From assembly GCA_963716395.1 (NCBI GenBank), contig OY970309.1, forward strand, positions 2,281,365-2,345,364: a stretch of DNA of 64,000 nucleotides, written 5' to 3'. This DNA comes from an uncultured Fibrobacteria bacterium (GTDB lineage Bacteria > Fibrobacterota > Fibrobacteria > UBA11236). Shown here in pieces: positions 41,195-63,177 of the stretch. The position numbers and the translations under genes were made by a program. The notes beneath the pieces are model-generated. The model was not told the DNA's origin, made no database searches, and worked only from the letters and a program-made list of their open reading frames with translations. Position 1 is the first letter of the stretch; each line of letters begins with the position of its first letter.

Positions 41195-41248
41195 TGTTTG
41201 TTGTTCAAACTGTAGCAGATATTTTAACATAGAAATTGGACACCCAGT

Positions 41249-42046: not shown

Positions 42047-42325
42047 ATCATGGCGCGCTCATTAAAAATTGCTTTCTAGGTTATTTTTGTGAACCCAGGG
42101 TGAATGCGATTTGAGGAAAATACCGCGGGCATCGCTGTCGGGCGGCATCGGAAAATAAGTCGCCCAACGCTTCCATGTAAAACCAAGATACTTGTCGGAG
42201 ATGCGATGACGGGCGCCTCGCAGGCTACGTTCCTGCAAATGGACGAGGACTGCCGATAACATTTTCTATTTTTAATAAATACCATTAGTTCATCAAAATC
42301 CGAAATATTTTATTGGATTACTATA

Positions 42326-42679: not shown

Positions 42680-42816
42680 AAAAATCAATTGAACACGTAG
42701 TAATTATTGCAAATTTGAGAAACCATTTCTATCTCAAAACAAATACACTTGGAAAAATTACTTATCCGTGGCTAAAATTGCCTGAACCTCAATAGTTGGG
42801 AATTGGATTTAATAAA

Positions 42817-43236
42817 ATGAATACTTGGTGGTTTTACGCCCTGTTGTCCGCATTCTTTGCCGCCTTGACGGCAATCCTCGCCAAAATTGGAATTAAAGGT
42901 GTCGATTCCGATCTGGCCACAGGAATCCGAACTGTGGTGATTCTATTCATTACGTGGGGAATAGTTTTCTTTAAAAAATCGGGCGCAAGCATATTTTCCT
43001 TATCAAGACACAGTTTGATTTTCATCTGCGCTTCCGGAGTTGCAACGGGTATTTCCTGGTTGTTTTATTTTCGGGCGCTTCAGTTGGGGAAGGTCTCCCT
43101 GGTCGCTCCCATTGACAAAGCAAGTCTGGCGATTACGATTTTACTTTCGGTTTTATTTTTGGGTGAAACGTTGACGCTTAAAACATCAATCGGGGCGGTT
43201 CTTATTTTGGCCGGAACCTTAATTCTGGTTCTATGA
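42817..43236 (+). CDS. Small EamA/DMT-superfamily transporter (4-TM, 139 aa)
   Basis: ATG 42817 (MNTWWFYALLSAFFAALTAILAKIG...). Four hydrophobic helices and an EamA-like motif pattern (ILFITWGIVFF...LFLGETLT). Confidence 0.65.
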   Translation: MNTWWFYALLSAFFAALTAILAKIGIKGVDSDLATGIRTVVILFITWGIVFFKKSGASIFSLSRHSLIFICASGVATGISWLFYFRALQLGKVSLVAPIDKASLAITILLSVLFLGETLTLKTSIGAVLILAGTLILVL

Positions 43237-43406
43237 TGTCGGAAATAAAGTATTAATTTAAAAATGGGAAACCTTATTCAAAGAAAGGCCCCCGTTTTCC
43301 TTGAAACTCTGACCTATTCCGCACACTTGGAGGTACAGCTTTAACGGAAGCAATGAAGTTTGCAATTCGTGAGAAAACCATTACTTTTTTGGGATAAAGG
43401 AAGTGC

Positions 43407-44210
43407 ATGAAGTATTTATTCATTTTCTGTAGCGGACTGCTGCTGTTGTGCGGGGGCTGTGCTACGGCGCAAGGGCAAACCAAAGTTTCACCGTCGGCGC
43501 GAAGCGCAGAGACTTTGGCCTCAGCGACCAGTGAAATTTCACCGCGCGCCGAAAGCGTATTGCGGTCGGCTTGCGATTTTCTTGCGCAAACGCCCGCTTT
43601 CAGTTTTAGCGGTGAGATCTGGCGCGAGCATATTAATGATTCCGGGCATAAAGTTCAATTCAGCCGCATGGTAGAAATGGATGTTAAACGACCGGACGGA
43701 TTGCGGCTGGAGATCAGCTCGCCCTTCTCCACGCGCGGCTTTTGGTACGACGGTAAAACACTGACGATTCTGGACCGCACGCATAATTGGTATAGCAGCG
43801 CCGCCATGCCGTCCACGCTGGATGACATGGTGGACACGGCGCGTGATGAGTATGGAATTGATTTGCCGTTGATTGACCTCGCGGTGAGCGACCCATACAA
43901 GAATGCCATAGCGAAAGTGGAAACGGCGAAGTATTATGGAATTTCCCCGGTGTTGGGCGTTCTGTGCCATCATCTGGCGTTTACGCAGGACAATGTGGAC
44001 TGGCAGATTTGGATTCAGGAAGGTCCGCAGCCGTTGATCCGAAAATTTGTCATTACGCACAAAAACGATCCCGGCCAGCCGGAATTCACCGCCTTCATCC
44101 TACATTATGACATGAACGACCGGATTACCAATACTGATTTTGAATTCAACTCGCCCGTGGGCGCATCCAAGATAGCGATGCGCAAGGTTGAATCCGGCAA
44201 TACAAAATAA
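43407..44210 (+). CDS. Periplasmic/outer-membrane lipoprotein with a LolA-like fold (tentatively DUF2092-like)
   Basis: Lipobox LLLCGGC. Size and predicted beta-rich character. Its stop overlaps the start of the next gene (TAATG). Confidence 0.55.
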   Translation: MKYLFIFCSGLLLLCGGCATAQGQTKVSPSARSAETLASATSEISPRAESVLRSACDFLAQTPAFSFSGEIWREHINDSGHKVQFSRMVEMDVKRPDGLRLEISSPFSTRGFWYDGKTLTILDRTHNWYSSAAMPSTLDDMVDTARDEYGIDLPLIDLAVSDPYKNAIAKVETAKYYGISPVLGVLCHHLAFTQDNVDWQIWIQEGPQPLIRKFVITHKNDPGQPEFTAFILHYDMNDRITNTDFEFNSPVGASKIAMRKVESGNTK

Positions 44211-45190: not shown

Positions 45191-45263
45191 TGAGCCAGGA
45201 GGGATTTGAACCCACGACCCACGCCTTAAAAGGGCGCTGCTCTACCAACTGAGCTACTGGCTC
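45191..45263 (-). tRNA. tRNA-Lys (anticodon UUU), 73 nt, no encoded CCA
   Basis: Manual fold. Perfect 7-bp acceptor stem GAGCCAG/CTGGCTC. D-stem GCTC/GAGC with G18G19. Anticodon stem GCGCC/GGCGT and loop CUUUUAA (U33, A37). T-loop TTCAAAT. One U-U mismatch in the T-stem. Confidence 0.85.
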
Positions 45264-46313: not shown

Positions 46314-48883
<2,570 letters not shown>

Positions 48884-48887
<4 letters not shown>

Positions 48888-50290
48888 GGAAGCTCCCTTT
48901 CCAAAGGTTTGGCCGCGGCGGCCTTTTCCCAATCCGCCTCCGGCGCTTTGGCGAAATGAAACTTCGCCAATTTGCTTTTGAGGGTGGGCAGGGGAATGTT
49001 CAAAAGTTGGGCCGCCTTGGTTCGGCTGCCGTCGCAGCGCGCCAACGCCTCTTTGAGCACGCGCTCTTCCGTGCGATCGAGAAATTCCGGCAGCGAACTT
49101 TGTCCCCAGTCGAAGGCGGGAACCCGGCCTGCGGCGTCGACGAGATTGAGGGGCAAGGCGGAGCGATCGATTTTTCCGTCGCGGTTGAGCAGCACCAGGC
49201 GTTCGATGACGTGCTCCAGTTCGCGCACGTTGCCCTCCCAGTTATGCCGTAGGAAAATTCCCAGGATCTCGTCGGAGAAATCGAGTTTCCGATCCGGGGA
49301 ATATTTCCGCAGGAAATGATCCACCAAAAGAGGAATATCCTCGGACCGTTCCCGCAAGGGGGGGATGCGGATTTGTAACACGTTCAGGCGGTAATACAAA
49401 TCCTGACGGAAGGTTCCGTTTTCCACCAGCCGGGCCAAATCTTTCTTGGTGGCCACCAAAATGCGCACGTCGGCGTGCAACGTCTCTTCGCCGCCGACGC
49501 GTTCGAATTTTCCCGTCTGGGTGAAGTTCAGCAGCTTGACCTGGGTCTCCATGGGAATGTCGTCGATTTCGTCGAGGAACAAGGTGCCTTTGTGCGCCAT
49601 TTCAAAGCGGCCTTTTTTCTGGCGCACCGATCCCGTGAAGGCGCCTTTCTCGTGACCGAACAGTTCCGATTCCAACAGTTCGCGCGAAAGCGCGGCGCAA
49701 CTGACCATGACGAAGGGATGGTTGCTGCGGCGGCTTTGGTAATGGATGGCTTCGGCCAGCACGTTCTTCCCCGTGCCGGTTTCGCCGTAGATGAGCACGG
49801 TGGAGTCGGCCGCCGCCACGATCCCGGCCAGGTCGAACACCGCCCCCATGGCCGGCGACCGCGCCAGCATGTTGCCGAAACTGCGGTCGGAATCGTGGCA
49901 GCCGCGGCGCTCCCGGGTTTCCTTGCGGATGCGAATGGTTTCTTTTACGTGCCGGATGATGCCCATCAGTTGTTCGATTTCAAAGGGCTTGCGCAGATAA
50001 TCGACCGCGCCGTTCTTCAGGATTTCAATCGCCGATTGAATGGTGGCATGCGCCGTCATCAGCACAAATTGCGTGGCCGGGCAATTCGCCTTGACGAATT
50101 CCAGCACTTTCGGACCGTCGATGCCGTCCATGACCATGTCGCAAATGACGAGGTCGAAGTCGCCGGCGCGCAGACAGGCCACCGCTTCTTCGCCGGTGGC
50201 GACGGCGGTCACGCAGAAACCCGCATCCCGGAGTTCATCCTCCAAAGCCAGGCGCAGGCTTTTTTCATCTTCGGCGATCAAGATGTTCAT
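48884..50290 (-). CDS. Sigma-54-dependent response regulator (NtrC family)
   Basis: Receiver domain MNILIAEDEKSLR...DLVICDMVMDG. AAA+ sigma-54 activator motifs GETGTGKNVLAEAIH and GAFTGS (GAFTGA-like). C-terminal HTH. ATGA overlap with the upstream kinase gene and a 4-nt overlap with hppA. Confidence 0.9.
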
Positions 50291-51735
50291 ACGGCGGACT
50301 CCGCCGGAAAGGTGAGGGCCAGCACGCTGCCGCGCCGGCCTGCGCGCGCTTTCAATTCCAGGCTGCCGTGATGGGCCTTGACGATCCCAAACGAGACGTA
50401 CAACCCGAGTCCGGTGCCCTTCTTGCCTTTGGTGGTGAAAAACGGTTCACAGGCTTTGGCCGCGATTTCAGGGCTGACGCCCGATCCGTCGTCTTCGACG
50501 GCGATGCGGTAATGACCGTCGCTGCGGCCCAGGGAAATCCAGATGTTGCCGTCGCGTCCAATGGCGTCGATGGCGTTGATGACGCCGTTCACGATGACCT
50601 GCACCAGATGCGATTTCACGCCCGACACCATGCAAAGCTCGACGGGAAGATCGAGGTGCAGGCGCAAATTGTTGCGGTGCAGGCGCGGCTGCACCAGCTT
50701 CACGGCGTCGTGGATCACCGACTGGAGATCCACGGGAAACTCCTCGCGCTCGGATTCCTGCGCGTAGTTGAGCAAATCGCCGACCACCCCCTGGATATGG
50801 TTGGTGGCTTCGGAAATGAGGTCGAGGTATTCGCTTTGCCGCGCCTCCAGCCGCGGCGATTTTTGCAACCGGCGCACGCACATCTGGATACCGGCGATGG
50901 GGTTGTTGATTTCATGCGCCATGCCGGTGGCCAAGGTGCCCATGCTGGCCAGCCGTTCCGTCTCCAATATTTTCGCATGGGCGTTTTTGTAATCCCGATC
51001 GGTTTCGTTGATCCGCTCCATCATGGATTCGAATCCCCGCGCCAGCAGGCGCAACTCGTCGTTCAAGGGGCTTTCGATGCGGGGCATGGGGCCGCCGGGT
51101 ACAAAGGCGTCGAAGCCTTGGAGGATTTTATAAATGGGCTCGGAGATGAAATGCGAAAACAGCAAGGCGCCGCTTAACCCGAGGATCAGAAAGGCCAAGG
51201 TCATGGCGGTCATGGCGTAGCCGACCTTGCGCGCCTTGACGAGGGCCGAGGCGTCGTCGACGCCCACCGCCAGGCTGCCGAGGCGGCCGCCATCGAGCAA
51301 GGCGGTTTGCTGCTGAATGGCCACCCGGCTTTTGCCCACCTGCACGCGGTCTGGGCTTCCGGCGTTATGCACGGAGAACAGCGCGGGCGGGACCTGGTTT
51401 CCGGAAAAGGCATGCGCCACGATTTTTCCCTCGGGATCGAATACCAGGATGTAGAGAATGTCGGGATCGCGCTGCTTGACGGCTTCGATCAGGGCGCTGA
51501 CGGAAGGGAGATGGAGGTTGGAGGTTTGCAGCATCGCGGCCACCTGGTGTTGCAGGACGCCCGCGATCAAATCGGCTTTGTGCCGCATCTCTTCTTCGGC
51601 GGTCTTAAGAACGAAGGTGTAGGAGATGTAAAGATTAATGGCCCCGAAGAGAAGAATGGTCCCGGTCATGGAGACCATGAATTTGACGCGGAGGGGGATG
51701 AACCGCTTCCCGAGCCACGCTTCCGGCCATTTCAT
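50287..51735 (-). CDS. Sensor histidine kinase (membrane sensor, HisKA + HATPase_c)
   Basis: H-box TGMAHEINNPIAGI and ATPase boxes (N: IDAIGRDGN; G1/G2: EDDGSGV, GTGLGLYVS). Two TM helices flank a periplasmic domain. Start chosen as ATG 51735 (MKWPEAW...); alternatives exist. Confidence 0.85.
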   Translation of the reverse strand: MKWPEAWLGKRFIPLRVKFMVSMTGTILLFGAINLYISYTFVLKTAEEEMRHKADLIAGVLQHQVAAMLQTSNLHLPSVSALIEAVKQRDPDILYILVFDPEGKIVAHAFSGNQVPPALFSVHNAGSPDRVQVGKSRVAIQQQTALLDGGRLGSLAVGVDDASALVKARKVGYAMTAMTLAFLILGLSGALLFSHFISEPIYKILQGFDAFVPGGPMPRIESPLNDELRLLARGFESMMERINETDRDYKNAHAKILETERLASMGTLATGMAHEINNPIAGIQMCVRRLQKSPRLEARQSEYLDLISEATNHIQGVVGDLLNYAQESEREEFPVDLQSVIHDAVKLVQPRLHRNNLRLHLDLPVELCMVSGVKSHLVQVIVNGVINAIDAIGRDGNIWISLGRSDGHYRIAVEDDGSGVSPEIAAKACEPFFTTKGKKGTGLGLYVSFGIVKAHHGSLELKARAGRRGSVLALTFPAESAV

Positions 51736-51837
51736 CCACCTGTGCACGTCGCGCCGCCTCCGAGGTTGCCGCGTTTTTCTTCGCCCCGACCTCCATCTCC
51801 GCACCGTTCCTGGCCGATCGGAATCCTCCCCCCATCC

Positions 51838-53382
51838 CTACTTCTTCCACTCGGGAACGATCTCGTAGACGATGGCGGCGATGAAGCAGAGCATGATGCC
51901 CCCCACGCAGAGGATCGGGCTGAAGGGAAGAATCGGATCGAGATACGCTTTGGTCCCGAAGCGGGCCGAGAGCAAGAAACCGGCCACCGCCAGGGAAAGG
52001 CCCAAGATCAAAGTGATTCCGAAGCAGGTAAGGCGGCGCAGATGGCTAAGGTGGCTTTCGCCCAGTTTGACCTGCAACGCCGGCAACTCATGGGCATGCA
52101 TGTTCAGCGGGACGATCGGGAAGATTTTCATGAAGCCCATGTACACCATGATCGCCAGGGCCGTAAGGCCCGCGATGATGGAAACTTCCACCCAGGAGGG
52201 ATGATAGAAGCCGTGGCGGTAAGGCAGCAAAGTGCCGAAGGTTTGCGAAGGCACGATGATGATGAAACGCTTCAGAATGCAGGAGACGTTCACCAACAGG
52301 CCGGCGAAAACATGCAGCCCGATGTTCGTGATCCCTTTCAGGTATTGAAAGAAAATGATCAGAGCGGAGATGAGCAAGCCGCCGACCGTAATCCAGAACA
52401 ACGGCGCATAGACACCATTGGTCACCTGTTGCGCGACCCGGGTTTCGATCAACGGGGCGGCATAATGTTCGGTGAGTTCTTCGGCGACCATGAAATAGAT
52501 GTAAACGCCGCAGAGAATCATCATCAACAGACCCAGCCATTTGAAGGCTTTGGGAACGATGACCTCCTGCAAATTCAGGAACTTTCGGACCAAGGCCATG
52601 ATCACCATGATGAAGCCGGTTCCGGAAATTCCGGCCATGACCACGAACCCGGGTGCCTGCAGGGCCGTGAACCAGCCGGGGCGGGCCGATTGGAGTCCAA
52701 AAATGAAGCCCAAAGTGGAATGCGCGGTGATGAGCAAGGGCAGGATGAAAAGCGAAAGCCAGAAGCTGGAGTTCGCGTGCCGGTTGAAATCCTCGGGCCG
52801 GGGCTGAAAGCCCATGGCCCAGATCTTATAGAACATGCGCAGGGGCGGGAACGTGGCGCGGGTGGCGAGGTAGGCAGCGTCTTCGCGGGCCGAGAGATAG
52901 AAGAAGACCATGCTGGAGAAGAGGTATCCGGCCGCCACCATGGCAAAGTCGCCGAAGAAGGGAGAAAGCGGACGGGAGTAAAGCGGAAAGTTGATGATGC
53001 CGTGAATCGGCCGTCCGAGATCGGCCAGGATGGCGACCGCACCCATGGTCAAGATGATGATGGTCATCAGCTCGGCCATGCGCGCAATGGGTTTCAGGTA
53101 GGAGATTCCGAACAGGCGGATGGTGGCCGAGATGGTGATGCCCGCAAAACTGACACCTACGAAGAAAACGTTGAAGATGACGTACAGGCCCCAGGTGGAT
53201 CCACCCACCCCGATAGTGCGCATGTTGGTGACGAGTAAACCGTACAAGACCTGGCGGGAATAGGCATAAACGCCGACGGCAAAGATCAGAAACAGTACGG
53301 CCATGATGGCCATCCAGGTCGGACTGAATTTCATCAGCCCCAGGGGAACCGGTTGGGACGAATCTTCATTGAACATTTCCAT
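51838..53382 (-). CDS. NrfD/PsrC-family polytopic membrane subunit (ActC/QrcD-like quinone-interacting subunit, about 514 aa)
   Basis: Ten or more TM helices and the NrfD-family pattern. Start MEMFNEDSS at 53382 overlaps the upstream FeS gene stop (TGATG). The ORF-track N-terminal extension is R/P-rich junk. Confidence 0.8.
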   Translation of the reverse strand: MEMFNEDSSQPVPLGLMKFSPTWMAIMAVLFLIFAVGVYAYSRQVLYGLLVTNMRTIGVGGSTWGLYVIFNVFFVGVSFAGITISATIRLFGISYLKPIARMAELMTIIILTMGAVAILADLGRPIHGIINFPLYSRPLSPFFGDFAMVAAGYLFSSMVFFYLSAREDAAYLATRATFPPLRMFYKIWAMGFQPRPEDFNRHANSSFWLSLFILPLLITAHSTLGFIFGLQSARPGWFTALQAPGFVVMAGISGTGFIMVIMALVRKFLNLQEVIVPKAFKWLGLLMMILCGVYIYFMVAEELTEHYAAPLIETRVAQQVTNGVYAPLFWITVGGLLISALIIFFQYLKGITNIGLHVFAGLLVNVSCILKRFIIIVPSQTFGTLLPYRHGFYHPSWVEVSIIAGLTALAIMVYMGFMKIFPIVPLNMHAHELPALQVKLGESHLSHLRRLTCFGITLILGLSLAVAGFLLSARFGTKAYLDPILPFSPILCVGGIMLCFIAAIVYEIVPEWKK

Positions 53383-54263
53383 CACACTTCCTTTTTTTCC
53401 AGCCCCAAAGATTTTTCCTTGCGCAGGAAATAAACCTTGGGCCGGGTTCCGAGGTCTTCGAGCAATCGTTGCGCGCGGGGGCTGGCGGCCAGGCGCGATA
53501 CCAGGCTGTCGGGATCGTTCAGGTCGCCGAAGATGATGGCTTCGGCCGGGCAGGATTGCGCGCAAGCCGGAAGCAATTGCACGTCTTCGTCGGTGAGCGC
53601 GCGGTTTTCGGCCCGGCAATCTTCTTTGAGTTTGCGGATGCGATGCACGCAGAAGGTGCATTTCTCCACCACGCCCCGCGGGCGTGTGGCCACGTCGGGA
53701 TTCAGCGCTTCTTTATAAGTATCGGGCCAGGCAGGCTCGGTCCAATTGAAATAGCGGCGGGAGTAGGGGCAGGCCACCTGGCAATAGCGGCAGCCGATGC
53801 AGCGATCCCAAATCTGGGCGACGATGCCTTCTTCGTCCTGCATGGTGGCGCCGACCGGGCAGACTTTTACGCAGGGGGGATTCTCGCAATGGTTACAAGG
53901 CATGGGCGTCGCAATGGAATCACTTTCTTCGCTGAAGTTCAGCATGGTCATCCAATTGATTTCGGCCCCGGCCTTGCGGGGGTTGTCGCCGTTGAAAGGC
54001 ACGTTGTTCTCGACATGGCAGGCCACCACGCAGGCGCCGCAGCCCGAGCACAAATCGAGATCGATGGCCATGCCCCATTTTGGGCGTTTCCCGGTTTTGG
54101 GGTTGAGGTACACGCCCTTGGATTCGGTTTTCATTTCCTTGGCGACGGCCGCCTGGATCAATCCCGCAAAGGGCAGGGCGGCGATGAGCTTGAGAAAGGT
54201 GTTGCGGGGCATACCTCCCAAGGTTTCTTCCGGCGCGGCGATTTCGGGTTTCGGGTTTTTCAT
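53382..54263 (-). CDS. 4Fe-4S ferredoxin-type iron-sulfur subunit (PsrB/ActB2/QrcC-like)
   Basis: Four Cys clusters: CSGCGACVVACHVENN, CNHCENPPCVKVCP, CIGCRYCQVACP and CTFCVHR. Start ATG 54263 (MKNPKPEIAAPEE) lies 2 nt after the stop of the molybdopterin-subunit gene. Confidence 0.85.
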   Translation of the reverse strand: MKNPKPEIAAPEETLGGMPRNTFLKLIAALPFAGLIQAAVAKEMKTESKGVYLNPKTGKRPKWGMAIDLDLCSGCGACVVACHVENNVPFNGDNPRKAGAEINWMTMLNFSEESDSIATPMPCNHCENPPCVKVCPVGATMQDEEGIVAQIWDRCIGCRYCQVACPYSRRYFNWTEPAWPDTYKEALNPDVATRPRGVVEKCTFCVHRIRKLKEDCRAENRALTDEDVQLLPACAQSCPAEAIIFGDLNDPDSLVSRLAASPRAQRLLEDLGTRPKVYFLRKEKSLGLEKKEV

Positions 54264-54265
54264 AA

Positions 54266-56704
54266 TCAGGCCCTTGCGATGCGCACCCGGGTTCCGCAAC
54301 GAACGGAGTTGCCGCTCAAGGGATCGAAATTCGGGGCGGAAATGGTTCGGGGATTCGCGCCTTTTCCCTGGGCGAACCTTCCGTATTGGGTATGTCCGGC
54401 GCCGAGCTCCATCACGGCCAGATCGGCCGGCACGGTATAGGAAAGCAAGGCGTGGCATTGCAGTCGGCCGATGGGAGACTCGACCCAAACTGGATCGCCC
54501 TGGGACACGCCGAGGCGTCCGGCCGTATCGGGGTGAATGCCCACCCACGACTTCCAACTTTCGGTGGCCCACAAGCCGCGCTGCAATCCCGACAACTCTT
54601 TGAGATAGGGGATATTGGCGCCGCTGCCTTCAGAATAGGTCATGGGCTTGTAGGGAATGAAGAGCAGGGGATAATCGTTCTCCGATCCCGCGAAGCGCGG
54701 TTCCTCGGCATGCGGCAGCAGCGTCGTGGCCAGGGCAGGTTTTCCTAAGGCGGCCAAGGCCTGATCCGGCGTCTGATTTTTCTGTGCCGCCCAGTTTTTG
54801 ATGCGCGTCTCCGCCAGTTGTGAGCGGAATTCGAATTTTCCCGACGGCGTTGTGAAGACTTCTTTCCAGCTTTCCGCCGGCAGCGGATCGTCCTGCCAAT
54901 AGCCGACCTGCGTCAGTTTTTTCATGAAGTCAGCGGGACTCTCGGCCTTCAAGGTGCCGCGTTGGGCGCCGGCGATACCCACCAATCGCTCTTCCATCGC
55001 CGACTGAAAGTCTTTCCACGGGAAAGACGAAGCCACCGCGCCGCCGACGGCTTGTGCGATTTGGATCAAAACATCGCCGCTGTTTTGGGTGTCGTACAGC
55101 GGATCCACCGCCGGACGGCGGATGCCGATGGCCGCACGGAATCCGAAGGGCGGAGGCGTGGCGTCTTCCCAGCGTTCCAGATAGGTGTGGTCCGGTAATA
55201 TGAGATCAGAATAGAAGGCGCTTTCGTCGAGAAAGGGCGCGAAACTGACGATGAAGGGAATTTTTTCGAAAGCCCGGCGATACCGATCCGGGTCGTTTTT
55301 GGCGTACAACGGATTGGAGTAATACAACAGCAAGGCTTCGGTCGGGTAAGGCTTGGCCGCCAGCACGCTTTCCGGTAAAGCATCCAAGGCGGACGCGGCG
55401 AAGGGGAAGCGATCGCGCATGCGGCCGTCCAGCGCCGGTTGCTGCAACCCCGCCTTGGCCGCGGCGTCGTGGATCTCCGCCGCCCAGGCCGACAGCGGCA
55501 GGGGTTTTTTCACCACCATTCCTCCGGGCCGCTCGATTGAACCCAGCATGGCGTTTAGCGCCAGCGCGCAGCGGGCGATGTTGAGGCCGTTGGAAGTGGC
55601 GGTGGAACGGGAATCGACCACCACCACCGCCGGACGCGAAGCCGATAATTCGATGGTCAGTCGGTAAATGTCCTGTTCGGGAATCCCCGTCAAGCGCGAA
55701 ACCTTGTCCGCCGGATAGTCGTTCAGCAGGGCCGAGAAATCTTCGAAGCCGACGGTATGGGCGGCGACGAAATCGCGATCATACAGATTGTCTTTCAACA
55801 ATTGATTGGCGAGTCCCAGTGCCAGCACATCGTAGGTGCCGGGGCGGATGCGAATCCATTCGTCGGCCACTTCGGCGGTGCGCGATTCGTTGGCCTCGAC
55901 CTGCACGATTTTCGATCGCCGGGTGGGGTTCTCGCGCCGAAAACTTCCGGTGGCGCGCGCGAAGTGAATGCCGAAGCAGGTGGATTCGAAGATCCCGGAT
56001 CCGAGGCTCAGGATATAAGACGTCTTGAGCGCATCGTAGCCGGGAATCTCGGCGCTGCCGGTTCCCATTTCCATGGCTTGCACCAAGGCGCCGTCGCCCG
56101 TCGAGAGGGGATCGAAGAAGTTCGGCGTTCCGTACACGCGGCAGAACCGCTCCAGCATTTCCTTCATGAAGCCCCGCTGCCGGCCGCACAGGACGGCGAG
56201 CTTGTGAGGTTCGCCTTTCGTGCGCAAGGCGCCTAGACGTTGCGAAACTTCGGCGGTGGCCTGATCCCAGGAAATCGGTTTCCACCGTCCCGCGCCCCGT
56301 TCCCCATCTCTTTTCATGGGGCCGCGGATGCGATCCGGATCATAGAGGGTGAACACGCCGGATTGTCCTTTGGGGCCGAGTTTGCCCCCCACCAACAGGC
56401 ATTCGGGGTTTCCGTTGATCTTCACCGCACGTCCCTGCACCACCCGCACCTTGATTCCGCAGTTGACGGGGCATTGTCCGCAAGCCGTGGCGACTTGGCG
56501 TTCTTCGCCGAGATACCAGTGGTCGGATCCGGGAACGGGCGCCTTATCCTCGGCAATAGCGAAAGGATCGGTATGCGGCAAGCAGGCCGAAAGCGTTCCC
56601 GCCGCGCCCAAGGCGCCGGATACCTGCAGAAATTTTCTGCGGGAAAATGATCCGGATTTCACCGGGTTTGACTCCGCGTTATTGGTGGCACGTGGTGCAG
56701 GCAT
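54266..56704 (-). CDS. Molybdopterin-oxidoreductase-family (CISM) large subunit with a Tat signal (PsrA/ActB1/QrcB-like)
   Basis: Twin-arginine motif SRRKFLQVSGALGAAGTLSA. N-terminal FeS motif CGQCPVNCGIKV...C. MopB-family length of 812 aa. Confidence 0.85.
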   Translation of the reverse strand: MPAPRATNNAESNPVKSGSFSRRKFLQVSGALGAAGTLSACLPHTDPFAIAEDKAPVPGSDHWYLGEERQVATACGQCPVNCGIKVRVVQGRAVKINGNPECLLVGGKLGPKGQSGVFTLYDPDRIRGPMKRDGERGAGRWKPISWDQATAEVSQRLGALRTKGEPHKLAVLCGRQRGFMKEMLERFCRVYGTPNFFDPLSTGDGALVQAMEMGTGSAEIPGYDALKTSYILSLGSGIFESTCFGIHFARATGSFRRENPTRRSKIVQVEANESRTAEVADEWIRIRPGTYDVLALGLANQLLKDNLYDRDFVAAHTVGFEDFSALLNDYPADKVSRLTGIPEQDIYRLTIELSASRPAVVVVDSRSTATSNGLNIARCALALNAMLGSIERPGGMVVKKPLPLSAWAAEIHDAAAKAGLQQPALDGRMRDRFPFAASALDALPESVLAAKPYPTEALLLYYSNPLYAKNDPDRYRRAFEKIPFIVSFAPFLDESAFYSDLILPDHTYLERWEDATPPPFGFRAAIGIRRPAVDPLYDTQNSGDVLIQIAQAVGGAVASSFPWKDFQSAMEERLVGIAGAQRGTLKAESPADFMKKLTQVGYWQDDPLPAESWKEVFTTPSGKFEFRSQLAETRIKNWAAQKNQTPDQALAALGKPALATTLLPHAEEPRFAGSENDYPLLFIPYKPMTYSEGSGANIPYLKELSGLQRGLWATESWKSWVGIHPDTAGRLGVSQGDPVWVESPIGRLQCHALLSYTVPADLAVMELGAGHTQYGRFAQGKGANPRTISAPNFDPLSGNSVRCGTRVRIARA

Positions 56705-57263
56705 ATTCCGCCCCTCTTTCCTTGTGGCACGCGATGCACTTGGACATGGTCAAATAGGCGATGTCGGGCTGGGATACCGGTTGCGACACCTTGCGCATGT
56801 CGCGATGGCAATCCCAACATTTCATCTGCCCAAAGACGACATGCGCCCGATGCGAGAAATAAACATGGCCCGGTAACCTGTTCACCACGATCCAAGGAAT
56901 CTCTTTCCCCGTCTTCAAATACTCGCGCACCTTCGCTTCTTCCGGGTTTTTCCCCTGGGGTTCGGAATGGCAATCGGCGCAATCGCGCAACAGGGGCAAG
57001 GTCGCGTGCGCCCCTTTATCCGCGAAGCGATGGCAATCCGTGCAGTCCATGTCTTCGGCTTTGATATGGGCCGCGTGATTGAAGGCCAGCGGTTGCCGCA
57101 CCGCCGGTGGGGGAGACAGGAAATCGATGGCGGAGGCGGGAATGTCTCCCGAGCGATTACACGCTTGGTAGGTCAACCCGATCGCGAGCAACGCGAACCA
57201 GGCCGGGAGAAGGAATTTCCTTTCTCCCCGCCGTCCGCTGAGTTTCCGCTTGCCTGGTTCCAT
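56679..57263 (-). CDS. Membrane-anchored pentaheme cytochrome c (ActA/NrfB-like)
   Basis: Five CxxCH motifs (CTDCH, CADCH, CWDCH, CIACH, CTTCH) in 194 aa. N-terminal TM helix FLLPAWFALLAIGLTY. ATG 57263 with an AGGTGA Shine-Dalgarno. Confidence 0.8.
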   Translation of the reverse strand: MEPGKRKLSGRRGERKFLLPAWFALLAIGLTYQACNRSGDIPASAIDFLSPPPAVRQPLAFNHAAHIKAEDMDCTDCHRFADKGAHATLPLLRDCADCHSEPQGKNPEEAKVREYLKTGKEIPWIVVNRLPGHVYFSHRAHVVFGQMKCWDCHRDMRKVSQPVSQPDIAYLTMSKCIACHKERGAEYACTTCHQ

Positions 57264-57292
57264 GTCGTCACCTATCGGTTTGCCGCGGGGGG

Positions 57293-57709
57293 TTACTTCG
57301 TGGTTGAATTGGCAACATCGTATTTCAGCGAAGCCACCCAGGTTGCCAGCGTATCCAACTCTTCGTCCGACCCCTTGAATTTTTTCTTGTGCTTGTGGCC
57401 GTCCAGCTTCACCTCTTTTTTCAGCCACTTGACAATCCAGTCCTTCTCTTTTTTCTTGCCCACGTCCGACAGATCCGGGGGTTCGATTTTTTTCCCCAGT
57501 AAGGCTTCATCTTCGTCCACGTCCGCGGTGGATTCGTCCGATTTCACCTTGGCGATTTTCAACGCGGAAATCGCATGGCATTGGGTGCATTTATTCTGGA
57601 GAAAGATTTTTTGTCCCGCCGGAACGGCGGCATCGGCCTGTGCGCGCATCGGCGTCAAGCCCGCCAGTAACATTCCCGTTCCGAGGGAGAGCAGCGTTTG
57701 TTTCCACAT
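57293..57709 (-). CDS. Monoheme class-I c-type cytochrome (ActE-like), secreted, with a Lys-rich C-terminus
   Basis: Signal peptide MWKQTLLSLGTGMLLAGLTPMRAQA. Single CTQCH motif. AAGGAA Shine-Dalgarno. First gene of the minus-strand respiratory operon. Confidence 0.7.
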   Translation of the reverse strand: MWKQTLLSLGTGMLLAGLTPMRAQADAAVPAGQKIFLQNKCTQCHAISALKIAKVKSDESTADVDEDEALLGKKIEPPDLSDVGKKKEKDWIVKWLKKEVKLDGHKHKKKFKGSDEELDTLATWVASLKYDVANSTTK

Positions 57710-58115
57710 GGTGAGGTTTCCTTTCCTTCCCGAACCGGGTTGGGTGGTTCGTTTGTCATCCACGACTCAAGCGAATATCGATCCAAATTGTTCCGACTTG
57801 GAATGGCCCGGAGTTTCGGCTTTTTAATGCAACTCAATAGGCAAAGTGGCGAAACGGCAGAACTTTCAAGACAGACTGGCACGAATTTGGTGGGGAGCGT
57901 GCTTTCTCTTCAGGATGAATTTTGATCCCTATCCCGGATGAAATCTCATACGGCCGGGTAAAAATACCGCGAAAGTCGCGAAGCCGGGGTAGTCGAAAAC
58001 TGGACCCTGGAATTTATTTGTAATACCTGTCGCAAGAATGATGCGTTAAACCCGGCGAATGGGGGATGGCATTGATGTTGCTTGTTGCGTAATCGCAGAA
58101 CGGAGAAGCATCGGT

Positions 58116-59324
58116 ATGAAACCCCGTCCTTTACACCAGCCTCTCATCCTTCTCGTCCTGATCGCCGGCGCCGCCCAAGCGGATTACATCAACAGCACCG
58201 TCACCCTTGGAGGGTATGCGTTGGATTCCAAGGACGCGACCAATAGCAACGACTTCTACCAAATGGAACGCGTCAACGTTTCGGCTTTGGAAAACGGCCT
58301 GGATCTACATCTCGCCTACGGCTATTCCGATTTCTATGAAAAGCGCCCCAACACCTATCAGACTTCCAATCGCCTCGCCTTGGCCAATGTCGGATTCACC
58401 CCGGCCGGAATCGACGGGCTGCGCGTCGAAGGCGGACGAGACTTCATGAGCTTGATCGATCGCCCGCTCTACTATGATGGGGCCGAAGCGCGCTATCAGT
58501 ATCAAGGGTTTGTGCAGGCAGAATTGTTCGGCGGCTACGGCGTTCCCACGGTTTATCAAAGCGATCTCGTGGATTTCAATTCGGACAAAGCCCTGATGGG
58601 CGGCAAGCTCACCTTCACCCCGCTTTCCCAGTTGCTCATCCATCTCGACGGCTTGGTCAACGGCCGGCAGGATGACGGAACGCTCGGCGGCGACATTCAG
58701 GGAAGCCTGGGCGACCAGGTCACGGTGTCGGCCAACTCCGTCTACCGGCTGGATTCGAATTACTTCTCCCGGGCGGAAATTTCCGTGCTGGCCAGCGTCG
58801 TTCACCGCGTCCAGTACCAGCTTCGGTTCGGATACCAGGACGAAAAAATCGACTCAACCCGAAACTACGACTATTTCGTCAACCAGGCCCACCAGTACAT
58901 GCTGACGGGGTTCGTGTATTCCTGGAACGAGAAAATCAGCGCCGACGCGGATTACGGGGTGCTGATGTACACCGACACCACGGGCCAACTGGCGGATTTC
59001 AAACTGAATGTCTACGGATTTTTCGTGGGCGTCAGTCAGGAATTTGCCACCGTCACCGACGCCTTCGATTTGACGGCCGGCTACAGCAACACCTACTGGA
59101 GCCGTCTGCGCCTCGACGTGGCGGGAGATTACACCCGCTACGATTTGGATCCGGTCAACATCGGACTGAAAGCCCTCGACTTTTCCGTGGCCCCCACCTA
59201 CTTCCTCGGCCACGGGCTCGAAGCGACCGTGGAGTACGAATATCTGCACAACCGCATCTACGACAGCGACAACCGATTTTACGTCGGGATTAAGGAATCC
59301 TTTTTCAGAGGTCTCTCCAAATGA
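58116..59324 (+). CDS. Outer-membrane beta-barrel protein (about 402 aa), candidate porin of a porin-cytochrome complex (OmbB/MtrB/PioB-like role)
   Basis: ATG 58116 with a GGAGAAG Shine-Dalgarno. Signal peptide MKPRPLHQPLILLVLIAGAAQA. Abundant alternating aromatic/hydrophilic beta-strands (YQYQGF, LRFGYQD, YTRYDLD...). No heme motif. ATGA overlap with the downstream nonaheme cytochrome gene. Confidence 0.7.
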   Translation: MKPRPLHQPLILLVLIAGAAQADYINSTVTLGGYALDSKDATNSNDFYQMERVNVSALENGLDLHLAYGYSDFYEKRPNTYQTSNRLALANVGFTPAGIDGLRVEGGRDFMSLIDRPLYYDGAEARYQYQGFVQAELFGGYGVPTVYQSDLVDFNSDKALMGGKLTFTPLSQLLIHLDGLVNGRQDDGTLGGDIQGSLGDQVTVSANSVYRLDSNYFSRAEISVLASVVHRVQYQLRFGYQDEKIDSTRNYDYFVNQAHQYMLTGFVYSWNEKISADADYGVLMYTDTTGQLADFKLNVYGFFVGVSQEFATVTDAFDLTAGYSNTYWSRLRLDVAGDYTRYDLDPVNIGLKALDFSVAPTYFLGHGLEATVEYEYLHNRIYDSDNRFYVGIKESFFRGLSK

Positions 59325-60073
59325 AGCAAGTAACTCTGCCGTTACTGATTTGGGGAATCGCCCTGGGAGGCGAAACCCACCAGTTCTCCCATTATCAGCA
59401 CGTCAAAACCGAAGGATTGGAATGCACCGATTGCCATATCAAAACCATGGTTTCCACCACCTTGGCCGAGGCGCGGGTGGGATTGACCTTGCAGGCCTGC
59501 GTGAAATGCCATGACGACGATTCCGACTTTCAGACCCCCAAGCCCATTGTGCTGGCCGACCCCAGTTTTCGCCTGGTCCGGTCGGACGATCCCGATTTGA
59601 AATTCAACCACCGGGCCCATGTGCTCGCGAAAGTGCAATGCGCCGCCTGCCATGGAACGATCCTGGATTCGAGCGACACCGGCCATGCGCTGCAGCCGGC
59701 CAAAAACCTGTTGACCATGGAAAGCTGCATGCAGTGCCATGTGCAGAAGGCGCAAGTCGCCTGCCTCACCTGCCATACCAAGGTCGACGAACCCCTCAAT
59801 CATTTGAGCGCGCTGTGGATCCGCAGCATGGGCCATGGGATGCAGGCCAACCTGAACAAGCAAGACTGCTCCATGTGCCATGACAAAGGCTCCATCACCA
59901 CCTGCGCCGAATGTCATATGGGCAACGACGCGCGCAAAGTGCATGGGTTGAACTACCGGTTCAACCACGGCATAGACGTGAAATTCAAAAAGCTGGACTG
60001 CGCGGTCTGTCACGCACCGCTCGATCAATTCTGCGGGGATTGCCACGAAGGCAAGGGAAGGGTGTCGAGGTGA
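59321..60073 (+). CDS. Periplasmic nonaheme cytochrome c (250 aa, 9 CxxCH), MtrA/OmaB-like in heme density
   Basis: Signal peptide MKQVTLPLLIWGIALGG. CxxCH motifs: CTDCH, CVKCH, CAACH, CMQCH, CLTCH, CSMCH, CAECH, CAVCH, CGDCH. Confidence 0.85.
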   Translation: MKQVTLPLLIWGIALGGETHQFSHYQHVKTEGLECTDCHIKTMVSTTLAEARVGLTLQACVKCHDDDSDFQTPKPIVLADPSFRLVRSDDPDLKFNHRAHVLAKVQCAACHGTILDSSDTGHALQPAKNLLTMESCMQCHVQKAQVACLTCHTKVDEPLNHLSALWIRSMGHGMQANLNKQDCSMCHDKGSITTCAECHMGNDARKVHGLNYRFNHGIDVKFKKLDCAVCHAPLDQFCGDCHEGKGRVSR

Positions 60074-60834: not shown

Positions 60835-60870
60835 ATGTCCGGAGAATCTTTTTCTAGAGGAGCGTGGAAA

Positions 60871-62241
60871 ATGAAACAGTTATTGGCTTTACCACTATTG
60901 GTTATCGGCGCAATAACCTTCATGACGGGATGTATGGTGCAAGGCCCTCCGGGCCCTCCGGGGAAGGACGGAACGGACGGGCTGAACGGAGACAGCGCCC
61001 TGGCTTCCTGCATGAAATGCCATTCCGATTCCAACTTCAACATCAAGACCGAACAGTATCAATATTCCAAGCATTTTTTAGGCACGACCGTGGCCCGGGG
61101 CCAGAGCAACCGATTCTGTGCCCGGTGCCATACCAATGAAGGTTTCCAGGAAATCACCTGGAATGGCATGCCCTTCGTCGCCGCCGAAATGCCGAATGCC
61201 ACCAAGATTCAGTGTGCCACCTGTCACACCATGACGGGCTTCGATTTCTCAAACGATACGACGACCATCAATGAAATCTTGCGAACCAATACCCCGGTGC
61301 CCTTGCTGTATCTCAATCAAGTCACCTTATCCGGCTGGACCACCACCAATACCTTCGACTTTTCCCAGGGGGCGTCCAAGATCAATAATTTGTGCGCTAC
61401 CTGCCATCAAATCCGCGGGGCCACGCAATTCACCTACACCGACACGGTGGGAGGCAAGTCGGCCACCAAAGCTTTTGCGCAAATTGCCTACTTCCCGATG
61501 GGCACGGCCATTCTACCCGGCGATACCGCTATCGCGGCCAAAGGGAATCTGAAGCAGCCAGCCGATTCGGTCGCCTATCTAGTGGGAAGAAGCTTCGCGG
61601 TGCATAATGGCAACCAGTCGAACATCTTATACGGAATGAACGGATACGACTTCGGAACGCCCATTGTCACTGGACCGCGGCATCATGCTAAGAGCAATTG
61701 CGTCGATTGCCACATGAATGCCTGGGATTCGACCACGCATACCGGCGGACATTCTCTCATCGTGAATCTCGACGACCCCGCTTGCAACGCCTGTCACAAT
61801 CTCCGAGATACCCTTGCCCAGGATTCGACGGTAGTCTCCGGCTTGCTCAAACAATTGGGCGATGCACTGGCGGCGCGGAAAGTCGCGGTGAAATCGACGA
61901 GTTCCTCCGGAGTGGTATCGTATTCCTTCCTGAACACCCATGATTTCTACGGCAAGCTCTATTCCAACAACCCGGCGGATTCGGCGGTGGTTTACGCCAG
62001 CCTGACCTCGGCGAACAAAACCGATTCGGCCACCGGGGTGATCGACTACATCAATAACGTCACCTATTCGAAGGATTCGAATTTGAAGAATAGAATCGGG
62101 CGTAAGTGGACCTATGGCGAATTGGGCGCCGCTTACAACTACGGGTTCATCAGCTCGGAAAATGATTTAGGCAAGCATAACAGCGACTATACCAAGAAGC
62201 TGCTGCAAGCCTCGATCAATTGGCTCGCCGCCCATCCGTAA
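60871..62241 (+). CDS. Lipoprotein hexaheme cytochrome c with a collagen-like Gly-X-Y segment directly after the lipobox Cys
   Basis: ATG 60871 with a GGAG Shine-Dalgarno. Lipobox FMTGC, then GPPGPPGKDGTDGLNGD. Motifs CMKCH, CARCH, CATCH, CATCH, CVDCH and CNACH. Last gene before a strong terminator. Confidence 0.8.
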   Translation: MKQLLALPLLVIGAITFMTGCMVQGPPGPPGKDGTDGLNGDSALASCMKCHSDSNFNIKTEQYQYSKHFLGTTVARGQSNRFCARCHTNEGFQEITWNGMPFVAAEMPNATKIQCATCHTMTGFDFSNDTTTINEILRTNTPVPLLYLNQVTLSGWTTTNTFDFSQGASKINNLCATCHQIRGATQFTYTDTVGGKSATKAFAQIAYFPMGTAILPGDTAIAAKGNLKQPADSVAYLVGRSFAVHNGNQSNILYGMNGYDFGTPIVTGPRHHAKSNCVDCHMNAWDSTTHTGGHSLIVNLDDPACNACHNLRDTLAQDSTVVSGLLKQLGDALAARKVAVKSTSSSGVVSYSFLNTHDFYGKLYSNNPADSAVVYASLTSANKTDSATGVIDYINNVTYSKDSNLKNRIGRKWTYGELGAAYNYGFISSENDLGKHNSDYTKKLLQASINWLAAHP

Positions 62242-62326: not shown

Positions 62327-62508
62327 CCGCCCTGAATCTGAAAATGTGAGCCGAGTCATTGGAGGCCCGGACTTTGCTGTCTTTGGGTGCATGATCAAAT
62401 CGGATGATTTTCAAGACAATCATCTGTCATTAATGCAAACCTACGGACAATTAGACAAATCGAGTGGGGTCGAGAATGCGCCAATCCGCCGCGGTAAAAC
62501 ACTTTAGA

Positions 62509-63177
62509 ATGCAGAACGCCACCAAGCTGCGAATTTTTCTGGGGCTGTGCCTGTCGTTGTTCATGGTGCTGCTTTTCAGTTGCCGGGAAAAGAACGAGAA
62601 GCAGAGTTATTCCGAAGTTCAAGGCTTCGACTCTCCGGTTAAACAGGAAGAGATCAAGGTGCCGGCCGATCTCCCAGCCGATCCGCACGCGGGAATGCAA
62701 ATGCCCGACGGGCAAAATCCCCCTGCGGGCATGGTGCCCGCCCATCCCGCCGGAACTCTGACATGGAAACTGCCCCCGGGTTGGACGGCCCAACCGGGAA
62801 GCGGCATGTTTTACGCCATGCTTACAACCGGTCCCGACGCCAATGCCGGGCAAGTTTCCATCATCGTTTTGCCGGGTGAGGCGGGAGGATTGCCAGCCAA
62901 TGTCGAGCGTTGGTTGGGGCAACTGGGTTTGCAACTCCCCGGCTCCGCCGTACAGAACTTCATCGCCCAGAGCAAAAAGATTCGCACCCAAGGGAACATG
63001 GACCTTACGCTGTTGGATTTCAGTTCCGTGGTCCCGGGTCCGGGCAATTCCATGCTGATGGGCATCACCAAACCCGGCGACGACTCCTACTTCATTAAAA
63101 TGATGGGACCGAAAGCCGCCTTGGAAAGCCAGAAGAAAAATTTCTTGGACTTCTGCAGTTCCTTGGTCCTGAAATGA
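62509..63177 (+). CDS. Lipoprotein of unknown function with a Met/His/Pro-rich segment, translationally coupled to resB
   Basis: ATG 62509. Lipobox LLFSC. PADPHAGMQMPDGQNPPAGMVPAHPAG segment. ATGA overlap with the downstream ResB gene. Confidence 0.5.
   Translation: MQNATKLRIFLGLCLSLFMVLLFSCREKNEKQSYSEVQGFDSPVKQEEIKVPADLPADPHAGMQMPDGQNPPAGMVPAHPAGTLTWKLPPGWTAQPGSGMFYAMLTTGPDANAGQVSIIVLPGEAGGLPANVERWLGQLGLQLPGSAVQNFIAQSKKIRTQGNMDLTLLDFSSVVPGPGNSMLMGITKPGDDSYFIKMMGPKAALESQKKNFLDFCSSLVLK

Follow-up and report, generated by a model that had tools for sequence, protein, structure and literature searches.

An ACIII/Qrc-like module with a degenerate molybdopterin-family subunit beside a porin-cytochrome operon in a Fibrobacteria genome

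We analyzed a 64-kb stretch of DNA (the window, whose coordinates are used throughout) from an uncultured Fibrobacteria bacterium. At positions 51838 to 57709 it carries five minus-strand genes for two c-type cytochromes, a molybdopterin-family (MopB) subunit, an iron-sulfur (FeS) subunit, and an NrfD-family membrane subunit. We propose, with a probability of roughly 60%, that this module encodes a quinol:cytochrome c oxidoreductase of the alternative complex III (ACIII)/Qrc type, which would be built on a dead molybdoenzyme scaffold and would link the quinone pool to the porin-cytochrome conduit encoded next to it. We draw the proposal from the genes and motifs of the module, from the families and folds of its proteins, and from its synteny. 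Outside Shewanella and Geobacter, the inner-membrane enzyme linking the quinone pool to outer-membrane cytochrome conduits is mostly unknown. The conserved block found here, made up of cytochrome maturation genes, a porin-cytochrome operon, the module, and a sigma-54 regulator, offers a concrete and testable candidate for this quinone-to-conduit step. It also bears on an ACIII/Qrc question, namely, the purpose of an FeS wire that runs into a dead molybdoenzyme domain, a wire that in this case ends at a conserved three-cysteine site. A further question on which it bears is the minimal membrane part for coupling, which here is one NrfD plus a two-helix hairpin, either fused to it or made as a mini-protein.

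Operon layout and the state of the MopB subunit

The five genes of the module are listed below in the order of transcription.

57293-57709, minus strand: monoheme cytochrome c; 138 amino acids, one CxxCH motif, Pfam Cytochrom_C
56679-57263, minus strand: pentaheme cytochrome c, ActA/QrcA-like; 194 amino acids, five CxxCH motifs, N-terminal hydrophobic membrane anchor
54266-56704, minus strand: molybdopterin-family (MopB) subunit; 812 amino acids, SRRKFLQ twin-arginine translocation (Tat) motif, Pfam Molybdop_Fe4S4, Molybdopterin, and Molydop_binding
53382-54263, minus strand: FeS subunit, ActB2/QrcC/DsrO-like; 293 amino acids, 16 cluster cysteines in four 4-Cys groups
51838-53382, minus strand: NrfD membrane subunit, ActC-type; 514 amino acids, Pfam NrfD

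A preliminary description of this DNA had named five co-oriented genes in this order and at these positions, and both the gene calls and the Pfam matches agree with it. The same five lengths (138, 194, 812, 293, and 514 amino acids) were obtained when genes were called independently on a public contig of identical sequence (locus L001). The junctions, earlier described as overlapping or near-overlapping, measured from -26 to +29 nt: the monoheme and pentaheme genes are separated by 29 nt, the pentaheme and MopB genes overlap by 26 nt, the MopB and FeS genes are 2 nt apart, and the FeS and NrfD genes overlap by 1 nt. Because the junctions are so tight, we regard the five genes as one operon. 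NrfD, MopB, and the FeS subunit each have one homologue within the 64-kb window, so that the large NrfD is, as previously claimed, present in a single copy.

By sequence, MopB matched ArrA (3e-70) and PsrA (2e-54) best in the PDB, with ActB at 1.9e-15. In pairwise alignments, Cys173 of PsrA and the ligand Cys of ArrA face STGDGA in MopB, and the fourth cysteine of the N-terminal FS0 site faces a glycine. The loop at the Mo-ligand position reads DPLSTGDGALV and is variable within the clade. In the FS0 motif itself, C75, C78, and C82 are present, and the fourth ligand position is Gly110. The subunit had been announced as a Tat-signal protein with an N-terminal FeS motif; the Tat signal was found, and the FeS motif was found with only three of its cysteines.

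We then aligned the best 120 homologues. The query and its 42 best matches belong to a three-Cys-plus-Gly ("CCCG") class, in which the ligand loop is variable throughout and carries indels in some members. In homologues with a four-Cys FS0 site, this place is taken by a conserved GHSSIC, with a Cys ligand, or DHxSIS, with a Ser ligand. Across 123 columns that are conserved over three catalytic groups, the CCCG class retains 80 and loses 17. The losses comprise the His of HSSIC, R272, the AAK motif, the Asp of PGTD (replaced by Tyr or His; the query has PGTY), the RG-SMQ segment, the His and Arg of T-H-AEG-R-GAN, and NPN. Several of the lost columns are filled by variable residues, and the replacements and indels at the Mo/pyranopterin guanine dinucleotide (PGD) site vary even inside the query's own 20-member subclade. 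The preliminary description had asked whether the molybdopterin-binding residues are catalytic or degenerate, and with neither a Mo-ligand Cys nor a Ser and with 17 of the 123 columns gone, they are degenerate. As judged from these alignments, the catalytic site of MopB has probably been lost and the protein is probably a non-catalytic subunit. Conversely, CxxCxxxC and Gly110 occur without exception in the 78 CCCG sequences, and this invariance suggests that a three-Cys, possibly 3Fe-4S, cluster has been retained. Since the RRKF Tat motif is followed by a lipobox Cys41 (residues 20-41), MopB is probably exported by the Tat system as a lipoprotein; the same probably holds for most of the CCCG class, in which a twin-arginine motif and a lipobox Cys (within LSAC or LAGC) mostly occur together.

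A neighbor-joining tree of MopB sequences (205 sequences, 781 columns, 100 bootstraps) was anchored by ArrA and PsrA, with QrcB and ActB1 sequences left out. The CCCG class and a myxobacterial group formed an 84-member clade with a bootstrap value of 97, and the query fell into the 20-member subclade with a value of 100. ArrA, PsrA, and the groups with Cys and Ser ligands all lay outside the 84-member clade. Of the assignments that the preliminary description had wanted to decide by phylogeny, the tree thus sets MopB apart from ArrA and PsrA, the QrcB and ActB1 clades not being part of it.

The genomic context of the MopB genes was examined in at least 80 loci from species genomes, which were recovered with a MopB profile and whose neighbors were identified by phmmer. 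All 15 members of the 84-member clade with a known context sit after a pentaheme gene. Among the matches listed, 84 MopB open reading frames (ORFs) had context. A canonical ligand motif was present in 39 of them, and none of these follows a pentaheme gene. Of the other 45, 30 do follow one, and all 10 ORFs of the CCCG class are among these 30 (Fisher p = 7e-12, kinship ignored). The pentaheme-linked loci among these matches came from metagenome-assembled genomes (MAGs) labeled Fibrobacteria, Planctomycetota, Myxococcota, and Acidobacteriota, and from others labeled Rokubacteria/Methylomirabilota-related, Syntrophia, and Thermodesulfobacteriota. The pentaheme-linked architecture is therefore widespread, and it is nameless in curated libraries. 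Annotation pipelines label the proteins of the module generically or as polysulfide/thiosulfate reductase, which may mislead reconstructions of sulfur cycling.

FeS, cytochrome, and NrfD subunits

The FeS subunit was most similar in the PDB to the C-terminal domain of ActB (6f0k_B, 2.6e-59), with PsrB and ArrB at about 1e-34 (PsrB, 3e-34). Against NCBIfam it reached 274 bits with the QrcC model (cutoff, 400) and 204 bits with the DsrO model (cutoff, 200). All 16 of its cysteines are conserved across the family. They form four 4-Cys motifs in a gene separate from that of MopB, in line with the earlier description of a 4x[4Fe-4S] subunit, and the protein is predicted to bind four [4Fe-4S] clusters. 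ActB and QrcC contain one 3Fe-4S cluster beside the quinol site (PMC5928083, PMC7439408, PMC8076601), and in ACIII this cluster has a potential of +140 mV (PMC7439408). No 3Fe-4S signature was found in the four motifs of the FeS subunit. At the proximal cluster it carries CIGCRYCQVACP where the ActB proteins of Rhodothermus marinus and Roseiflexus have C-x-G-T-x-Y-C, that is, CIGCRYC as opposed to the CIGTRYC of ActB. In two Syntrophia loci (L008, 7649-8368; L009, 3245-3811), Val replaces the second Cys of the third cluster motif. This variant is the 3Fe-4S signature of ActB and QrcC, and among the pentaheme-linked loci listed it occurs in these two only.

For the pentaheme cytochrome, the best PDB matches were ActA chains at 6e-23 to 1e-15 (8k9e_A with 6e-23, followed by 6lod_A and 6f0k_A), and E values against the ActA proteins of the four solved ACIII structures ranged from 6e-23 to 2e-11. 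The NCBIfam QrcA model gave 113 bits, with a cutoff of 180. All five heme motifs are conserved across 33 homologues, and together with the N-terminal anchor they bear out the transmembrane-anchored pentaheme cytochrome described earlier. The monoheme cytochrome has a cleavable signal peptide ending in AQA and one heme motif, CTQCH. There is no lipobox Cys in it, and by sequence it had no relative in the PDB, ActE included. Its mature chain contains no Met and a conserved His lies in HKKKFKG, which together suggest bis-His ligation, an arrangement unusual for a class I-like monoheme cytochrome. We consider the protein probably a low-potential, bis-His, soluble periplasmic carrier, unlike ActE. 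Homologues are encoded upstream of the pentaheme gene in loci L002 (two copies), L036, L071, L082, L084, L089, and L090. The comparison with ActA and ActE recommended in the preliminary description thus gave a split answer: the pentaheme protein is ActA-like, and the monoheme protein has no match to ActE.

When NrfD was compared with the PDB by sequence, ActC chains were the sole matches. Its AlphaFold2 model had a predicted local distance difference test (pLDDT) score of 86 and a predicted TM-score (pTM) of 0.87. Foldseek aligned the model to ActC with TM-scores of 0.83 to 0.84 and root mean square deviations of 2.5 to 3.0 Å; ActF reached about 0.6, and PsrC was a weak match. We mapped the functional residues of ActC, as published (PMC5928083), onto NrfD by alignment. 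The residues identical in NrfD are W82, R119, E122, T125, D169, Y176, S180, D191, H247, E326, E338, and the gate residue R395 (ActC numbering). In the best 120 homologues, W64, R101, D121, D168, and R372 of NrfD are invariant or nearly so. The length of the subunit (514 amino acids) is due to two extra C-terminal transmembrane helices, as a 10-helix core is followed by a two-helix hairpin (helices 444-472 and 488-508); reviews give NrfD proteins 8 to 10 helices (PMC8076601).

51841-52053, minus strand: NrfD C-terminal hairpin; residues 444-514, motif LDPxxPFSP...F..SA.VYE..P, invariant E507

The hairpin is kept in 112 of the 120 closest NrfD homologue clusters, with R450, D482-P483, P486, P489, F492, G495, Y506-E507, and P510 invariant or nearly so. 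In relatives with a short NrfD (429 to 432 amino acids), it is a separate gene directly 3'. In locus L086, a stand-alone gene for 83 amino acids (8291-8542) comes right after a 429-amino-acid NrfD, and hhalign shows its product to be a homologue of the hairpin (probability, 97.3%; E = 2.5e-11). A 71-amino-acid gene occupies the equivalent place after NrfD in L088 (4827-5042). A profile search of 1.84 billion representatives yielded 116 hairpin clusters, about 40 of them stand-alone proteins of 57 to 100 amino acids. The remaining matches were fused NrfD C termini or gene fragments, and those of 177 to 247 amino acids that we fetched were NrfD fragments. The mini-gene of L086 accompanies a catalytic-type MopB with a TorD/NarJ-like chaperone gene; the hairpin is therefore a general accessory of this NrfD subtype and extends beyond the pentaheme complexes.

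ActD is a two-helix subunit whose Glu touches Ser245 and His247 of ActC (PMC5928083, PMC7439408); the equivalent positions of NrfD are T219 and H221. The hairpin resembles ActD in its position after the NrfD core, in having both ends in the cytoplasm, and in its conserved Glu. It differs from ActD in that it shows no sequence similarity to it, lacks a cytoplasmic domain, and in that E507 lies at the cytoplasmic end of its helix. When the hairpin was compared with all PDB chains, no ActD was returned by phmmer with an 87-amino-acid tail or by hmmsearch with a 10-sequence profile, nor did any of the 116 clusters contain proteins of the size of ActD. Homology between hairpin and ActD is thus not supported, and since no sequence similarity is demonstrable, the likeness is one of analogy. 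NrfD may carry an ActD-like element fused to it.

Comparison with known systems and proposed function

As references for ACIII we used the complexes of Rhodothermus marinus (6F0K), Flavobacterium johnsoniae (6BTM), Roseiflexus (6LOD), and Chloroflexus (8K9E). With these the module shares a membrane-anchored pentaheme cytochrome homologous to ActA, an FeS subunit nearest to the C-terminal domain of ActB, and an ActC-fold NrfD that keeps many proton-pathway residues, including the gate Arg. It also shares a MopB-like module with a Tat signal and without a Mo site, a monoheme cytochrome in the operon, and a two-helix element with a conserved Glu that follows the NrfD core as actD follows actC. 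Unlike the fused ActB of ACIII, MopB and the FeS subunit are encoded by separate genes, a split that was already known. Cofactor-free ActB1 has no reported three-Cys FS0 motif (PMC5928083), whereas the MopB of the module keeps three FS0 cysteines and is far nearer to Arr/Psr than to ActB. Further differences from ACIII are the four cysteines of the proximal cluster motif, which is not of the 3Fe-4S type; the lack of ActF, with a single NrfD homologue in the window; the gene order mono-penta-MopB-FeS-NrfD; and a genomic partner that is a porin-cytochrome operon and not an oxidase. ActE is lipid anchored, in contrast to the soluble, Met-less, and sequence-unrelated monoheme protein of the module.

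Qrc is likewise a complex of four subunit types with a cofactor-less MopB (PMC6303296, PMC13059093). The module resembles QrcABCD, the menaquinone reductase of sulfate reducers, in having these subunit types in the same order (multiheme cytochrome, MopB homologue, four-cluster FeS protein, and NrfD of the 10-helix type) and a single NrfD, and Qrc models were the best NCBIfam matches for three of its subunits. Still, all four models stayed below their cutoffs (QrcA, 113 of 180 bits; QrcB, 298 of 440; QrcC, 274 of 400; QrcD, 24 of 570). On ten related MopB proteins the QrcB model gave 260 to 313 bits each, none at the cutoff, and it is non-discriminating because the catalytic-type MopB of L004 also scored 297 bits. 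QrcB carries no redox cofactor, whereas the MopB of the module has a conserved three-Cys motif; one of the clusters of QrcC is of the 3Fe-4S type, whereas all four motifs of the FeS subunit have 4 Cys; and QrcA of Desulfovibrio vulgaris has six hemes, whereas the cytochrome of the module has five. In addition, the module contains a monoheme gene and a 12-helix NrfD that Qrc does not have. Judging from its relatives, which include Fibrobacterota MAGs, its lineage is probably Fibrobacterota-like and not that of a sulfate reducer. The gene order MopB-FeS-NrfD, the MopB fold family and Pfam domains, and the PsrB-like four 4-Cys motifs are shared with PsrABC, PhsABC, and ArrAB(C). In contrast to these enzymes, MopB is missing the Mo-ligand Cys and the fourth FS0 Cys, along with other conserved residues of the active site; the module adds the penta- and monoheme cytochromes, and its NrfD is of the ActC type, with 10 plus 2 helices where PsrC has 8.

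ACIII-like clusters of iron reducers have been proposed to act as quinol:acceptor reductases that feed periplasmic multiheme cytochromes (PMC9386147, PMC3543383). The module is similar to the clusters of MBNT15 SHF-111, Melioribacter roseus, and Pelobacter carbinolicus, for which a role in extracellular Fe(III) reduction is proposed and which have no oxidase link. These clusters were published as actABCD(E)(F) sets, and they are likened to the module by their description alone. The separation of ActB1 and ActB2 is mentioned in PMC9386147, which cites Refojo 2010, and ActC-only complexes have also been described (PMC3543383), so that a split ActB and a single ActC are not new in themselves. In the literature cited here, we found no description of a pseudo-MopB with an invariant three-Cys site, of an FeS subunit with 4-Cys motifs throughout, of a 12-helix NrfD whose hairpin can also exist as a mini-protein, or of conserved synteny with a putatively sigma-54-controlled porin-cytochrome operon. 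By its sequence features, then, the module is neither canonical ACIII nor Qrc. The preliminary description had called it a reduced or rearranged ACIII variant closer in composition to Qrc. It is a variant, and its subunit types are those of Qrc, but the Qrc cutoffs were missed and the partner subunits are ACIII-like.

For the substrate, the direction of electron flow, the cofactors, and the coupling to protons, we infer the following scheme. A quinol, probably menaquinol, would bind at a periplasm-facing site of the ActC-like NrfD and pass its electrons to the FeS subunit, where the proximal [4Fe-4S] cluster would receive them. From there they would enter the five hemes of the membrane-anchored ActA-like cytochrome and move on to soluble periplasmic cytochromes, namely, the Met-less monoheme protein and the nine-heme protein encoded nearby, which would deliver them through the adjacent porin-cytochrome conduit to extracellular acceptors. 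MopB, as a Tat-exported lipoprotein without a Mo-bisPGD site, would hold the periplasmic arm together; the most that it would keep is one cluster with three cysteines, possibly of the 3Fe-4S type, where the FeS wire ends. Because NrfD keeps much of the proton pathway of ActC and its fused hairpin has the invariant E507, quinol oxidation and the release or translocation of protons are probably coupled. A wire made entirely of 4Fe-4S clusters and a Met-less monoheme cytochrome would suit low-potential electron transfer in either direction.

Several observations speak against an oxidoreductase of this kind or limit it. The Qrc complexes, whose models were the best matches for three subunits, run in the opposite direction, from cytochrome to menaquinone. 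Two residues of the quinol site of ActC are changed in NrfD (H139 to D121 and D253 to I227), and the equivalent of D169 is Thr in most members of the NrfD family, while D121 is invariant. The FS0 site of three Cys and Gly is 100% conserved in 78 sequences, which would be unexpected if MopB were purely a scaffold, so that a redox role of MopB is conceivable. The MopB tree was built by neighbor joining alone and without QrcB and ActB1 sequences. Finally, in L084, a close relative, the module lies beside ResB/CcsA without a porin-cytochrome operon.

A bolder version of the proposal, which we put forward only tentatively, is that the module represents a distinct and widespread third branch of the ACIII/Qrc family, dedicated to quinol oxidation for porin-cytochrome conduits. 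In Fibrobacterota-like and other non-proteobacterial lineages it would take the role of CymA, ImcH, or CbcL. The dead MopB would keep a 3Fe-4S cluster as a second electron port, and one 12-helix NrfD, with the hairpin as a functional counterpart of ActD, would be enough for redox-coupled proton translocation.

The same complex might also run in the direction of Qrc, taking electrons from periplasmic cytochromes and reducing menaquinone electrogenically; this is the main rival of our proposal, although we think it unlikely. The donors would be the porin-cytochrome conduit (with Fe(II), a cathode, or a syntrophic partner behind it) or a periplasmic hydrogenase or formate dehydrogenase. QrcA, QrcB, and QrcC are among the best NCBIfam matches of the pentaheme, MopB, and FeS subunits, JGI labels two close MopB homologues as Qrc molybdopterin-binding-like subunits, and Qrc has the same four subunit types with a cofactor-less MopB. 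The Met-less monoheme protein, with the low-potential bis-His ligation that it suggests, would also fit low-potential donors. These points are offset by the failure of all four equivalog models to reach their cutoffs and by the equally high score of the QrcB model on the clearly catalytic MopB of L004. Moreover, NrfD is ActC-like rather than QrcD-like, the FeS subunit is without the 3Fe-4S signature of QrcC (PMC8076601), and genes for a hydrogenase or formate dehydrogenase were not identified in the examined parts of the window.

Arsenite oxidase combines a three-Cys 3Fe-4S cluster with a ligand-less Mo. In the same style, MopB could be an unusual working Mo or W enzyme that has no protein ligand to the metal, acts on a periplasmic substrate, and has the hemes and the quinone pool as its partners. 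Selection on the site is implied by the invariance of the three-Cys FS0 motif and Gly110 (78 of 78), and 80 of the 123 catalytic columns as well as all three MopB Pfam domains are kept. We nevertheless regard a working enzyme as improbable, as the residues lining the Mo and PGD site are lost and many of them have given way to variable residues or indels even within the 20-member subclade. The operon also has no gene for a TorD/NarJ-type chaperone, which the catalytic relative L086 does have, and among the matches listed the association with an ActA-like pentaheme cytochrome is strict.

A canonical ACIII with a split actB, feeding a terminal oxidase in aerobic respiration, is a very improbable reading, even though ActA-, ActB2-, and ActC-like subunits are present and a split ActB is a known variant (PMC9386147). 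The operon contains no gene for ActF or a stand-alone ActD, no oxidase gene was identified among the neighboring genes examined, and the conserved neighbors are a porin-cytochrome operon and cytochrome maturation genes. The monoheme protein is a Met-less non-lipoprotein without a match to ActE, and the proximal cluster has a 4-Cys motif in place of the 3Fe-4S cluster found at +140 mV in ACIII (PMC7439408).

An ordinary terminal reductase for polysulfide, thiosulfate, tetrathionate, or arsenate with extra cytochromes, to which the proximity of MopB to ArrA and PsrA in the PDB and the NCBIfam PhsA match might point, is rejected because MopB lacks the catalytic signature: the Mo ligand and the fourth FS0 Cys are lost together with the active-site motifs, all reductase models are far below their cutoffs (PhsA, 347 of 694 bits; ArrA, 269 of 1600; TtrA, 78 of 1750), and relatives with the canonical Cys never accompany a pentaheme gene among the matches listed. 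The preliminary description had named a complete catalytic signature and a grouping with substrate reductases as the signs of such an enzyme; what we found is a lost Mo ligand and a separate clade.

The divergent porin-cytochrome operon and other features of the window

On the other side of an intergenic region, earlier estimated at about 400 bp and measured here as 406 bp, a second operon is transcribed divergently from the module. Its genes, those at the other end of the module, and the intergenic elements are as follows.

48884-50290, minus strand: NtrC-type sigma-54 response regulator; with the kinase gene, directly downstream of the module
50287-51804, minus strand: histidine kinase; start at 51735 in the gene call of L001
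57710-58115, no strand: divergent intergenic region; 406 bp
58067-58082, plus strand: sigma-54-type -24/-12 element TGGCATTGATGTTGCT; starts 49 nt upstream of the porin start codon
58116-59324, plus strand: outer-membrane beta-barrel (porin); 402 amino acids, AlphaFold2 model with 22 strands and pLDDT 80
59321-60073, plus strand: nine-heme periplasmic cytochrome c; 250 amino acids
60076-60834, plus strand: lipoprotein multiheme cytochrome; 252 amino acids, lipobox LGGC, four CxxCH motifs and one Cx4CH motif
60835-62241, plus strand: lipoprotein six-heme cytochrome; weak MtrC/MtrF domain match
62464-63177, plus strand: conserved lipoprotein, function unknown; 237 amino acids, 42% identical to its counterpart in L082
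63177-64000, plus strand: ResB/CcsB cytochrome c maturation protein, N-terminal part; cut off by the edge of the window

The predicted 22-strand barrel and three multiheme cytochromes, two of them with lipoboxes, agree with the earlier identification of the neighbor as a porin-cytochrome operon. The six-heme cytochrome likely starts at 60871, which gives a protein of 456 amino acids, as in its relatives. The porin start at 58116, and with it the length of 402 amino acids, agrees with the gene call of L001. Foldseek with the porin model returned usher pores and OprD/Occ porins as top matches. The porin had no match in Pfam or NCBIfam, and no relation to MtrB-type porins was detectable. Its family is tiny (22 homologue clusters at 45 to 69% identity), and none of the clusters is named. 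For the lipoprotein at 62464-63177, Pfam gave no match. The ResB fragment, on which Pfam alone was silent, is 65% identical over 272 amino acids to a Pfam-ResB gene of L082 by BLASTP.

Four contigs (the window, L082, L089, and L090) have one layout, and their MopB proteins are 61 to 67% identical. In this layout, CcsA-ResB-conserved lipoprotein, three multiheme genes, and the porin stand on one side, and mono-penta-MopB-FeS-NrfD and a sigma-54 activator stand on the other. The MopB of L082 shares a cluster, at 90% identity or above, with a protein of a Fibrobacterota MAG. The system II maturation pair ResB/CcsA flanks the conduit in all syntenic relatives.

In each of the four syntenic loci, a sigma-54-type element precedes the porin start codon by 45 to 50 nt (at 8401 in L082, 7748 in L089, and 6704 in L090), and a sigma-54 activator adjoins the module in L082, L084, L089, and L090. 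The conserved element and the adjacent NtrC-type activator in each locus suggest that the porin-cytochrome operon is under RpoN-dependent control. A scan of the divergent intergenic region found no sigma-70 consensus, and a sigma-54 element for the promoter of the module itself was not found in the window.

Other parts of the window had further features. Directly downstream of the two-component genes and on the same strand lies a gene for a membrane H+-pyrophosphatase (46314-48932, minus strand). Two adjacent giant genes (9749-22680, minus strand; 3,165 and 1,145 amino acids) contain repeated Laminin_G_3 and DUF2341 domains, a beta-helix, and an FlgD-Ig domain and probably encode a pair of very large surface proteins. 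Between 40001 and 44000, the G+C content is 0.45 to 0.46, compared with 0.55 to 0.65 elsewhere. CarboxypepD_reg-like, DUF2092, and DUF6515 ORFs lie within this low-G+C stretch and slightly past it, up to about 45.0 kb, and the only tRNA gene of the window (45191-45263, minus strand) lies next to it. The stretch at 40001-44000 may be an acquired island.

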